27,032 nucleotides of DNA from a virus (lineage: Duplodnaviria; Heunggongvirae; Uroviricota; Caudoviricetes): positions 1-27,032 of IMG/VR virus record IMGVR_UViG_2695420624_000003, one strand, 5' to 3'. Positions 9,397 to 13,983 of this stretch are shown one piece after another (within the stretch, counting starts at the first letter, position 1; each line of letters begins with the position of its first letter). The notes beneath the pieces are model-generated. The model was not told the origin of the DNA, searched no databases, and saw only the letters and a program-made list of their open reading frames with translations. The translations under genes and the position numbers were made by a program.

Positions 9397-10308
9397 TCAG
9401 TACTTAAATAAGAATTTGCTATTACTTTGAAATTGAGATGGTGTGGTTGCAATCGGACTAGATGTCGCAGCTATCTCTTCAAGTAACTCAGCTTTCCAGA
9501 CATGCCCTAGTTGCAAAGATTCACTATGCGACACTTTGTATTCTGCAGCACTAACGACTTGTTCTAAGAAAAGATCACTGTTTAGCATTTGCATACTTGC
9601 ATAAACGCCAAGGAAATGAATTTTCATTCCCATATCCATGATCATATTCCCTTCTTTTGTAAGATAACCACTGTGCGTGACATAGAATGCCGGAGAGCCT
9701 GACATTCCAGGGAAAGCAGAAATATCGACAACTATTAATTTCTTCCCATCGAAATCGATATCTGGCTCACTCGCTAAGCTTCCTGTTTTCCATATTGGAA
9801 GGTAGTGAGTCGTGTCATGATAACCATGAGGATATCCAATCATTACAACAGGAGATGAGGGGTTTATCTGGACATTAGGCAGTGTCGTTGTTTTTGAGAC
9901 TACTTTTACTCCTGTGTTTACAAACAACTCTTGAGGCAAAGGCATCAAGATAATGTCTGCCTCTTTATCTGTGGGGTGCTCCAACCACAGCGGTGAACCA
10001 TCTTTAAACAGAGGCATCGTATGTTTGAATAGTTTTCCGGTTTTATCTCTCAGCTGAATATCAATACTATCGCCTATAAATGGCTTTACACCCCTTTCGG
10101 ATGGGCTGATTCCAGTTATTACATGATAGTTAGTTGCAAGGAAAATGAAACCATTGCTATGTTGATAAAAGAACCCAGTACCTAACGACTTTGACTCTCC
10201 ATTAGACCTCAAAATTACTAAAGTAGTTACCAGAGATAGCGGCTGTACGTTTTGCATAAAATTCATCCAACATGAACTTCGATATAGGTTGTAAAAGCAT
10301 ACAATCAT
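9397..10308 (-). CDS. Trypsin-like serine protease (chymotrypsin fold), moron gene
   Basis: Catalytic-triad motifs in order: ATNYHV (His), ADIILMPL (Asp), GMSGSP (Ser). Low-GC. True start may be an internal Met (10266 or 10257). Confidence 0.65.
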   Translation of the reverse strand: MIVCFYNLYRSSCWMNFMQNVQPLSLVTTLVILRSNGESKSLGTGFFYQHSNGFIFLATNYHVITGISPSERGVKPFIGDSIDIQLRDKTGKLFKHTMPLFKDGSPLWLEHPTDKEADIILMPLPQELFVNTGVKVVSKTTTLPNVQINPSSPVVMIGYPHGYHDTTHYLPIWKTGSLASEPDIDFDGKKLIVVDISAFPGMSGSPAFYVTHSGYLTKEGNMIMDMGMKIHFLGVYASMQMLNSDLFLEQVVSAAEYKVSHSESLQLGHVWKAELLEEIAATSSPIATTPSQFQSNSKFLFKY

Positions 10309-11387: not shown

Positions 11388-11714
11388 TTACTCCTTCGAG
11401 CTACCAAATTTGTTACCGATTACTCGCATTGCAGCCCCACGAATTGCATCGACACCAATCAGCCCAACACCGCCACCAATGGCAACAGAAAGAGATTTAG
11501 GCCATCCGACATACTCAAGAGCGGATGCAAAAGTCAGCGTCAGAGCACCACAGAGCAAAATCTCGAGCGTTTTTCGTTTCCAGCCACCACCACCGCCAAA
11601 ATAGGCAATGCGCAAGCCAGCCATAACGATCGACATAATCACTGCGCCCAGCGGTGTGTCTCCACGCCACCAGCTCTGGAACAACTCCAGCCAGGTATTT
11701 GGGTTATGAGGCAT
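11388..11714 (-). CDS. Holin (lambda S-like)
   Basis: 108-aa protein with hydrophobic helices and a charged C-terminus, immediately upstream of the endolysin. Confidence 0.75.
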   Translation of the reverse strand: MPHNPNTWLELFQSWWRGDTPLGAVIMSIVMAGLRIAYFGGGGGWKRKTLEILLCGALTLTFASALEYVGWPKSLSVAIGGGVGLIGVDAIRGAAMRVIGNKFGSSKE

Positions 11715-11856: not shown

Positions 11857-11888
11857 AGAAACGACAAAACCCGCTCGACGGCGGGTTT
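11857..11888 (-). terminator. Intrinsic terminator upstream of the holin (tR'-like)
   Basis: GC-rich 8-bp stem AAACCCGC/GCGGGTTT followed on the minus strand by a U-rich tract (UUUUGUCGUUUC). Confidence 0.5.
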
Positions 11889-11933
11889 AAGCTGTGTGGC
11901 GAAGTAACCACTCTTAACACGATACAATAATTT

Positions 11934-11962
11934 TTGCGTACGCGTTAGCGTTTTTGTAAGAT
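11934..11962 (+). promoter_or_regulatory. Candidate sigma70 promoter for the 12000..13614 cassette
   Basis: TTGCGT, 17-bp spacer, TAAGAT, about 40 bp upstream of the cassette ATG. Read by eye only. Confidence 0.3.
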
Positions 11963-11999
11963 TAACAAATAAATCGAAAAATCATAATCGGATGATTTC

Positions 12000-13022
12000 A
12001 TGGCAAAATTAAATGCTAGCGAAAGACTCGTTACTCATCATAGTCTGACCATTGACACAAAGTTTAGAACCAAGGCAACACAAGAGGTAAAAGCCCAGTG
12101 TATATGTCCTGTTCCGGAAATGTACATGCTTGCCCCATTGATTGTTAAACAAAAGGGACTCGTTCATTCATATGATTCTGGGAATATTGTAGTTACTCTC
12201 CAAGATGTACAACTTTATCCTTTACTTCCAGATAACTCACCCACGCATATTGTCCTTCTTATTAATAGTGTTGATAAAAATGGAAGTACTACCGTTGTAA
12301 AAAATATAAATACTAATGAACGCGTTGAAATCCAACCAAAATATGAACAAGGTGAAGGCTATGAAGTTTCTACCTATGTTGTCATATCATTAAATGGAAA
12401 TAAAAGAACCTATGATATGATTTGTACATCTACCCCAGGTGTATCTACGGCCCGGTTAAATAGTTTTTTAGACAAAATTCTCTTTGAAGTGGCGAAAGAC
12501 AATGAAGACTTATTTACCGCAAAACATCCAACTAACGTTATTTCTGCAACATCAAAAAAAGAAGTAAAAATACGATACAAACCAATATTTGAATTTACAG
12601 GAATGTTAGACAAGGAGCTTTTTAATAAAATAAGCCAAAAAGGATTATCAGATGTCATATTAGTCAAGGATCAATTCGGAACAATTAATGCTCCTGATGT
12701 TAACTCACCTTACATTCCGACTGAAAGTACATTAAAATTACTTCCAAATCATGGTGACAATGTTATTGGATGGATTAAAAATGTAGCATCTCATTTCAAT
12801 AAAAAAATGAATGGTGGTTATGATAAATTAAAGGTTAAATTCCAAGATCCTGAAACAAATAAACCAAGGCAGGTTGATTTCAAAACCTCAAACATCAATC
12901 TTAATAATTTAGAAAAAACATTTATTAAGAAAAGCATTATCGATAACTTTAATTCGCGCCTGAAGGATTCATATGTTAAAATTGAGCTAGAGTTTGTTGT
13001 GAAAATGATAGATTTGATGTGA
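12000..13022 (+). CDS. Hypothetical soluble protein (340 aa), first gene of a low-GC cargo cassette
   Basis: Long low-GC ORF on the strand opposite to the phage late genes, Lys/Asn-rich, no recognised motif. Confidence 0.7.
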   Translation: MAKLNASERLVTHHSLTIDTKFRTKATQEVKAQCICPVPEMYMLAPLIVKQKGLVHSYDSGNIVVTLQDVQLYPLLPDNSPTHIVLLINSVDKNGSTTVVKNINTNERVEIQPKYEQGEGYEVSTYVVISLNGNKRTYDMICTSTPGVSTARLNSFLDKILFEVAKDNEDLFTAKHPTNVISATSKKEVKIRYKPIFEFTGMLDKELFNKISQKGLSDVILVKDQFGTINAPDVNSPYIPTESTLKLLPNHGDNVIGWIKNVASHFNKKMNGGYDKLKVKFQDPETNKPRQVDFKTSNINLNNLEKTFIKKSIIDNFNSRLKDSYVKIELEFVVKMIDLM

Positions 13023-13029
13023 GGTTATT

Positions 13030-13614
13030 ATGCCAATACTTTCAGTTTTCTCTCATCTAGGCAAGCCGTTTGGATATCTTTTTATTAAAGGTATTAGCGG
13101 CAAAGCTGCATATGATTGGGTAGCACCAATTCTACTTACTTCTATCACAGCAGTACTTTTCATTCTATTAAAAATCCCTGTCAAAGATTTATTTGATGAC
13201 AATGGTTTCATTAAATCAATCGTTTCATTTATCTCTAACCTACCAGGGTTTTATATTGCCGCTCTGGCCGCCATAGCAACTTTCAATAGAGCTGAGATTG
13301 ATTTACCATTGATTAGCAATGAAAGAAATGCCTCTATTGAAATAAAAGTAACAAAAGAAAATGGAAAAGTAGTAAATTCAGAGGAGGTTCTGACCAGACG
13401 ATTATTTCTTTGCATGCTATTCTCTTTTTTAACAGCATTAAGCATTGTTATAATAATACTTAATGCTATATTTTCACCATTAATCAATGTCTATCAAAAC
13501 AGTTTTGTTTTAATGGTTTATACTGTTGTATTTACTTTCCTCGTTTGGCAACTCTTAGTATCAACTTTCTTTGGATTATATTATCTCGGAAACAGAATTC
13601 ATATGAATTATTAA
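13030..13614 (+). CDS. Integral membrane protein (194 aa, about 4 TM helices), second gene of the cargo cassette
   Basis: Starts 7 nt after the upstream stop with a GAGG ribosome-binding site; four long hydrophobic segments. Confidence 0.7.
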   Translation: MPILSVFSHLGKPFGYLFIKGISGKAAYDWVAPILLTSITAVLFILLKIPVKDLFDDNGFIKSIVSFISNLPGFYIAALAAIATFNRAEIDLPLISNERNASIEIKVTKENGKVVNSEEVLTRRLFLCMLFSFLTALSIVIIILNAIFSPLINVYQNSFVLMVYTVVFTFLVWQLLVSTFFGLYYLGNRIHMNY

Positions 13615-13617
13615 GCC

Positions 13618-13983
13618 CTACAGGGGCTTAATAATCAACAAAATACCTTCAATCACTCCTATTGCTGCTTGAAGTTGTTTTCTGATTGACCCGTCAGAGC
13701 ATTTCCGTTTCTTTGCTATTGAACGGAGTGAAATACCGATAACAAAGTGAGCAATGATCAGTTCATATTCTTCTGGCTTATATTTCCGCATTCGCGCAAC
13801 ACAGCTGTCAATCATGATTCCTTCATCATCATCGCATTGTTGGCGTGTTTTCTTTCCATGAGGTAGTAAACCTTTAAACCCTGCAGCAACAGGCTGCCAG
13901 TCCACACCACTGTTATCTGCTGCAGCCCATGCTCCCCAGCGGTCCAATACTTCATACATATCACGCATCAACCTTCTCCACAA
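13618..13983 (-). CDS. Late-gene antiterminator Q (short QuuD-like type)
   Basis: Resembles the short Q antiterminators (VLDRWGAWAA ... AAGFKGLL ... KCSDGSIRKQLQAAIGVIEG) as recalled from memory. Start may be an internal Met. Confidence 0.75.
   Translation of the reverse strand: MWRRLMRDMYEVLDRWGAWAAADNSGVDWQPVAAGFKGLLPHGKKTRQQCDDDEGIMIDSCVARMRKYKPEEYELIIAHFVIGISLRSIAKKRKCSDGSIRKQLQAAIGVIEGILLIIKPL

Follow-up and report, generated by a model that had tools for sequence, protein, structure and literature searches.

The window analyzed in this study is a stretch of 27,032 nucleotides of Caudoviricetes DNA (IMG/VR record IMGVR_UViG_2695420624_000003), in which two genes of low guanine-cytosine (GC) content form a cassette between the antiterminator gene Q and the late genes. 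Gene A (12000–13022, + strand) and gene B (13030–13614, + strand) were obtained by open reading frame (ORF) calling; both start with ATG and encode proteins of 340 and 194 amino acids, respectively. From profile comparisons and residue positions, the cassette was concluded to be a distant member of the family that includes RexABpp (PP_5643/PP_5644), a lambda-Rex-like anti-phage system of Pseudomonas putida prophage P1 reported in January 2026 (Rosendahl et al., Sci Rep 2026, PMC12894663). The cassette can be regarded as an enterobacterial clade member of a known family and is probably a defence module. By analogy with its validated homologue, it is fairly likely to act as a lysogen-expressed, Rex-type abortive-infection or superinfection-exclusion module, with A as a DNA-binding dimeric sensor and B as a membrane effector.

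Assignment of the gene pair to PDC-M53 and its proposed kinship with RexABpp

The GC content was 0.326 for A and 0.318 for B, compared with 0.475 for the whole window and 0.50–0.58 for the flanks. Both genes lie on the + strand, opposite to Q and holin S, which are both on the − strand. Coordinates, GC content and hydropathy thus agreed with the sequence-only reading, which had described a low-GC cassette of a soluble 340-residue protein and a 194-residue protein with four transmembrane (TM) segments, running opposite to the late operon. The stretch 11900–13700 was 100% identical to Shigella phage SfII, in which A and B correspond to SfII_50 and SfII_49, both annotated as 'hypothetical protein'. 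The genes are separated by 7 nt. The Shine-Dalgarno sequence of B (GAGG, 13021–13024, + strand), read from the sequence, overlaps the TGA stop codon of A (13020–13022) and ends 5 nt before the ATG of B. The GAGG over the stop codon and the short gap make translational coupling, also proposed in that reading, plausible; the genes themselves do not overlap.

Both proteins matched the PDC-M53 models of PADLOC. Residues 7–340 of A aligned with positions 4–318 of the 320 positions of the PDC-M53A model PDLC04696 (E 2.1e-32), and four further M53A models matched A at 1e-12 to 1e-15. Residues 6–193 of B aligned with positions 2–187 of the 188 positions of the PDC-M53B model PDLC04699 (E 2.8e-54). The two genes were adjacent and co-oriented, as is expected of PDC-M53. 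PDC-M53 is a guilt-by-embedding candidate label without a proposed mechanism (Payne et al. 2024 bioRxiv). It belongs to a set of 145 candidates, which were drawn from cassettes located within BREX, DISARM or type I restriction-modification loci (Payne et al. 2024 bioRxiv). PDC-M53 has been listed in PADLOC since 2023/24, and the Pseudomonas member was validated in January 2026, so the suggestion that the system might be undescribed was not upheld at the level of the family. No mention of PDC-M53 by name was found in the literature searched, and PADLOC is not mentioned in the RexABpp paper (PMC12894663). The PHROGs of the pair, 9879 and 8257, are both labelled 'unknown function'. Pfam and NCBIfam gave no meaningful match for A or B, a PDB sequence search gave no match for A and no more than noise for B, and no signal peptide or adhesin-like feature was found in the pair.

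The proposal of a four-TM topology for B was supported by two methods. Hydropathy analysis gave four hydrophobic segments (residues 27–52, 64–83, 123–156 and 157–184), which coincided with four long helices of the AlphaFold model (predicted local distance difference test score 89, predicted template modelling score 0.85). SfII_49 is accordingly described here as an inner-membrane protein with four TM helices. A beta-hairpin loop (residues 102–120) lies between TM2 and TM3 in the model. The family-wide motifs of B are LPGFYIAALAAIATFN in TM2, TRRxFLxxLFxFLTAxS at TM3 and FxGLYYLG at the end of TM4. Foldseek comparison of B with viral models gave no significant match; a Sbash protein appeared at E 1.5 and was not used as evidence.

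Protein A (SfII_50) is a soluble basic protein with an isoelectric point of 8.9. No hydrophobic segment was found in A, the maximum Kyte-Doolittle 19-residue mean being 1.07. The top two structural matches of its predicted model were RdgC and lambda RexA, followed by CHL4 (7.1), CENP-N (7.0) and IML3 (6.0). Among viral models, Foldseek returned three uncharacterized phage proteins (E 5e-10 to 3e-7) and then phage RdgC. An RdgC/RexA-like fold of A is supported, not proven, by these model comparisons. The analogy with Rex drawn earlier from the pairing of a soluble and a membrane protein was supported, both by the two best structural matches of A and by the common family of the pair and RexABpp.

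The A family was limited to 30 clusters by word search, with every named source in Enterobacterales; an exhaustive profile search extended it to 268 representatives at 50% identity. The B family was larger and better conserved, with 682 matches. In a locus survey with one genome per species, 47 loci were returned and 45 were parsed, two short partial matches being left out. The surveyed loci span gamma-, beta- and alpha-proteobacteria. An A-like ORF of 316–405 amino acids ended within about 50 nt of the start of B in 41 of the 45 loci, typically at −4 to +12 nt. The A partners of seven other loci were tested, and all scored as PDC-M53A. The A–B pair, in that order, is a conserved, co-inherited unit across Proteobacteria. 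Over 33 paired loci, A had a mean pairwise identity of 25.6% and B one of 39.7%. Of 528 comparisons, 97% showed higher similarity for B than for A, and the divergences of A and B were correlated (Spearman 0.73). This pattern fits co-inheritance of a conserved effector and a fast-evolving sensor.

The link to a validated system was made through RexABpp. Both of its genes are needed for resistance to two phage groups, RexBpp (PP_5644) is a four-TM protein, and RexApp binds DNA and dimerizes (PMC12894663). Overproducing RexApp brings about RexBpp-dependent growth arrest and membrane permeability, seen as dye uptake and enzyme leakage (PMC12894663). The exact rexABpp primer sequences had no match in the genome or viral contigs searched; RexABpp was therefore placed by its termini and mutant positions. 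The published primers gave the termini MHRTATFV... and ...VYNKQSRLMV for RexApp, and MLIGQLANP... and ...GLYYLGYKLQE for RexBpp. A locus of Pseudomonas sp. 286 (L049), which was retrieved only as the carrier of a relative of window B, encodes an A protein of 330 amino acids that starts with MHRTATFVDIKI, beginning MHRTATFV like RexApp, and ends with ALMV. Its B protein of 188 amino acids starts with MLISQLTKP and ends with GLYYLGYKLQE. It carries W25, F35, L55, G153 and Y181, which fall at five of the seven sites where RexBpp suppressor mutations were reported.

The L049 proteins scored 1.5e-149 with PDC-M53A and 4.8e-71 with PDC-M53B. Window B was 38% identical to L049 B (E 2e-33), and hhalign of the Pseudomonas A clade with the window A clade gave a probability of 97.4% (E 1e-11, 290 columns). 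The RexBpp suppressor mutation Y181H falls in the family-wide GLYYLG motif. Y181 of L049 aligns with Y185 of window B, which was invariant in a 33-sequence B alignment.

Proposed mechanism and alternative explanations

By analogy with the validated homologue, A is proposed to be the sensor and DNA binder and B the effector. A would be a cytoplasmic, dimeric protein that binds DNA non-specifically. It would respond to a signal of the infecting phage, possibly replication or recombination intermediates, and would then activate B. B would oligomerize in the inner membrane and compromise membrane integrity, growth would stop, and the infection would be aborted. Judging from the locus, the cassette would be expressed in the lysogen from a weak promoter of its own. 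Its place between Q and a block that is probably the late promoter and terminator would keep it out of the Q-dependent late transcript.

Several points weigh against this reading. The region specific to the cassette upstream of A (11954–11999, + strand), which is not common to related phages with other cargo, contains only weak promoter candidates. Two of these were seen by eye, TTAACA-15 nt-CATAAT (11962–11988) and TTGTAA-17 nt-AAAAAT (11954–11982), and no sigma-70-like promoter upstream of A passed a consensus scan; the promoter of the sequence-only reading is thus retained as a weak candidate only. The whole cassette is rare: it was found in 9 of 5426 complete E. coli genomes, at ≥99.7% identity and always with Q within the matched stretch. 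The structural matches of A had modest scores, and its model was only moderately confident. Window A was about 20% identical to the RexApp-like A of L049, and pairwise BLASTP was not significant. The membership of RexABpp in PDC-M53 is one that we infer from primer-derived termini and five residue positions, and the function of the SfII_50/SfII_49 clade is carried over from the P. putida homologue. An interaction between RexApp and RexBpp was undetected in two-hybrid tests (PMC12894663).

That two-hybrid result would also fit a reversal of roles, in which B senses or restrains, and RdgC-like A is the effector, binding phage DNA or blocking recombination-dependent replication. The best structural match of A is RdgC, a DNA-binding protein that lowers RecA-catalysed strand exchange and the ATPase activity of RecA. 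Such an arrangement occurs in Kiwa (KwaA/KwaB) and in gp30/gp31 of mycobacteriophage Butters, where the RexA-like protein is the effector and is sequestered by the membrane protein. Reversed roles are considered unlikely, yet they are the best placed of the alternatives.

The RdgC-like fold points towards interplay with recombination, and the pair could instead serve mainly the life cycle of the prophage, with A biasing the lysis-lysogeny switch or modulating recombination and B as its membrane partner. This is judged improbable. The pair also occurs in contexts without a lambda-type switch, such as P4-like satellites, PM2-like elements and an island next to Zorya II. In the window it is far from the immunity region, and it is intact in a defective prophage with a truncated portal gene.

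Slightly less probable still is a non-defence moron or addiction module, in which A neutralizes a toxic B or the pair is a host-fitness or virulence factor: low GC content, reverse orientation and the cargo site are typical of morons generally, and HicAB adjoins the pair in Klebsiella aerogenes and, by primer and plasmid names, in P. putida, but excess A causes rather than relieves toxicity in RexABpp, the single deletions ΔrexApp and ΔrexBpp were both constructed and used in phage infection tests, the PDC candidates came from cassettes embedded in defence loci, and the pair lacks any signal peptide, adhesin-like feature, Pfam or NCBIfam match.

The family assignment offers a probable role for two genes annotated 'hypothetical' in the serotype-converting Shigella phage SfII and present also in related prophages of E. 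coli, Klebsiella and Salmonella. It also links three records that make no reference to one another, namely PDC-M53 of PADLOC, RexABpp of P. putida and possibly Sucellos. If this link is correct, Rex-type exclusion would be no curiosity of lambda but a family distributed over Proteobacteria, with mobile elements of at least four kinds as its carriers. A diverges much faster than B, which provides a natural series for finding what Rex-type sensors recognise, a question that reportedly goes back to Benzer's rII experiments.

Insertion site and genomic contexts

Q (13618–13983, − strand; Pfam PF06530, 1.2e-44) is convergent with B and lies 3 nt from the stop codon of B. Q also gave a distant match to Q21 structures (E 1.6e-4). 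On the other side of the cassette, holin S (11388–11714, − strand; Pfam PF05106, 6.6e-25, and SfII annotation) is the first late gene, followed on the − strand by the endolysin and then Rz genes. The proposed position between Q and the holin was confirmed and could be refined to between Q and a conserved 93-nt backbone block (11866–11958, − strand). This block, defined by conservation and a terminator scan, borders the cassette, is not part of it and has holin S as the first late gene downstream. It contains an intrinsic terminator on the − strand (11888–11867), AAACCCGCCGTCGAGCGGGTTT followed by a T-rich tail. The − strand of the block also reads TTACAA-18 nt-AAAAAT and then TATTGT, a possible sigma-dependent pause element.

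Stx2a_1447 carries the block at 98% identity, and mEp460_4F5 and PhiR40_1 carry it at 93%, the Q genes of these phages being related; its distal half was kept in a K. aerogenes prophage. In each phage the − strand late genes begin at the block, which separates them from reverse-oriented cargo. By this conservation and position, the block is probably the late promoter pR', the Q-utilisation site and tR'. If it is the Q-dependent late promoter and terminator, the cassette lies outside the late transcript, unlike stx.

Related phages held different cargo at this site, in keeping with the claim of a Q-adjacent cargo site. Each had a different low-GC cargo on the + strand between the block and Q: a pair encoding a soluble protein of 343 amino acids and a multi-TM protein of 179 amino acids in Stx2a_1447 (L006, 3597–5160), a gene for 308 amino acids in mEp460_4F5 (L007, 1476–2402) and a gene for 148 amino acids in PhiR40_1 (L008, 2202–2648). 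The GC content of these genes was 0.30–0.38. They had no significant Pfam or PADLOC match, the 179-residue protein giving only a sub-threshold LPG_synthase_TM match (E 0.0011). They were tested as members of the A or B family and do not belong to either. The statement that Shiga toxin genes occupy the same site required refinement. In the Stx2a phage, stx2 is downstream of the probable late-promoter block, the late genes after the block being a methylase, tRNAs and stx2AB, and the place that corresponds to that of the cassette is taken by another reverse-oriented pair. The refined position points to a cargo site with other uncharacterized genes, including one in Stx2a phages.

An inverted repeat with an 8-bp stem (13611–13631), TTAAGCCC-tacag-GGGCTTAA, extends over the stop codons at which B and Q converge and was conserved at the junction in the K. 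aerogenes prophage. It might serve as a terminator in both directions or as a stability element, and it has no U-tract. Over the final ~60 nt of Q (13615–13677), megablast gave no match to the otherwise 94%-identical Q of mEp460_4F5, which suggests a recombination joint within the 3' end of Q. It may tentatively be proposed that, in this group of lambdoid phages, the junction of a Q distantly related to Q21 with the late promoter is an unrecognized hotspot for reverse-oriented, low-GC cargo expressed in lysogens. The other occupants might then be further defence systems, and the enterobacterial A might recognise a different phage trigger; as a whole this proposal is possible, with the chances somewhat against it.

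In other genomes, the pair is carried at variable cargo sites by mobile elements of various types. It was found directly after the integrase in a P4-like satellite of Serratia, beside an Eco29kI restriction-modification pair in a P2-like prophage of Halomonas, in an AlpA/DUF927 island of Chromobacterium, and near a DUF4238 gene in a prophage-like region of Aeromonas. In a chromosomal island of Vibrio coralliilyticus, a type II Zorya system is nearby, with ZorA about 4.3 kb away and three ORFs between. In Vibrio cyclitrophicus, the integrated element PE001, which is PM2-like (Vinavirales) and 14.6 kb long, has the pair (L064, 3001–4546) next to its integrase, so the family rides on non-tailed temperate viruses too. 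In Salmonella phage F1055, the pair is immediately upstream of the holins and co-oriented with them. A lambdoid prophage of K. aerogenes carries it in the same Q-convergent position as in the window, with HicAB alongside. This HicA/HicB toxin-antitoxin pair (L014, 7900–8562) adjoins the PDC-M53 pair. In P. putida P1, hicBA2 (PP_3900–PP_3899) appears to flank rexABpp, judged from primer and plasmid names. The association of HicAB with PDC-M53 may be recurrent. A second pair of similar size in a Vibrio locus (L004, 3197–4189 and 4864–5457) was unrelated, its smaller protein having no obvious hydrophobic stretch by eye.

The window itself represents a defective SfII-like prophage, a remnant in which the cassette is still intact. 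The portal gene (5939–6427), truncated to 162 amino acids, abuts the tail-fibre-assembly and invertase genes. The region 3278–6427 contains, after the portal gene, an unassigned ORF of 248 amino acids, the tail-fibre assembly gene (4596–5189) and a resolvase/invertase gene (3278–3868). The head and tail genes expected between the portal and tail-fibre genes were not found in the window. The integrase in the window adjoins a host gene of the aldehyde dehydrogenase family. An ORF of 432 amino acids (1647–2945, − strand), in a region of 36–41% GC near the invertase gene, had no Pfam match and could represent either more cargo or a variable segment of the tail fibre. Between Rz and the HNH/terminase genes lies another cargo gene of low GC content (0.39; 9397–10308, − strand). 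Its product is a trypsin-like serine protease of 303 amino acids (PF13365, 3.7e-08), which matches the PADLOC single-gene candidate PDC-S45 (5.8e-42). Judged from a coordinate offset of 1251 bp and the SfII annotation, this gene is interrupted by IS911 in SfII.

Comparison with known systems

Kiwa has a layout like that of the window pair, with KwaA as a small multi-pass membrane protein and KwaB as a soluble protein of about 300 amino acids. Assignment to Kiwa was rejected, the window proteins having no PADLOC Kiwa or Pfam DUF4868 match at E ≤ 1 and the gene order being reversed. RdgC differs from A in that it is not paired with a membrane protein, and no Pfam match of any kind was significant for A.

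Sucellos (SclA/SclB) of the Vibrio cholerae superintegron was validated in 2024; it is RexAB-like by predicted structure and has no Pfam RexA/RexB matches (Darracq et al. 2024 bioRxiv). The system needs both genes, its SclB protein is predicted to form a multimeric pore in the membrane, and it was often reported in Salmonella prophages (Darracq et al. 2024 bioRxiv). It was also reported in a temperate phage of Nitrosospira. PDC-M53 pairs overlap with these hosts, occurring in Vibrio, a Salmonella phage and Nitrosomonas. No attC-like repeats, which would indicate an integron link to Sucellos, flanked the Vibrio PDC-M53 loci examined. Sucellos may be the same family as PDC-M53; the overlap in taxa and contexts is circumstantial, and the two were compared by description only.

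The window pair resembles lambda RexAB in that a four-TM partner is encoded immediately downstream of A. At the sequence level, the window proteins had no match at E ≤ 1 to the lambda Rex models (Pfam PF15969; PADLOC RexA/RexB). Lambda RexA and RexB matched their own PADLOC models (9e-110 and 9e-61) and not PDC-M53, and the window proteins behaved in the reverse way. In hhalign, narrow and broad profiles of the A family gave 0.3–0.8% probability against a 21-member RexA alignment. The B family gave 0.3% against RexB, and the best local alignment, which was not significant, paired the second TM helices of both. Membership of the lambda RexAB family was rejected, and the cassette was not filed there, because there was no profile-profile signal for A or B. 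Compared with the lambda proteins, A is 60 residues longer, and B is 50 residues longer with a cytoplasmic beta-hairpin loop. Lambda rex lies in the immunity region and is co-transcribed with cI, whereas the window pair is outside it, on the opposite strand and flanked by Q and the late region.

RexABpp is downstream of a cI-like repressor gene, whereas the window cassette is flanked by Q and the probable late promoter and runs on the opposite strand. The A proteins of the two are about 20% identical and the B proteins 38%, and the hosts and target phages differ.

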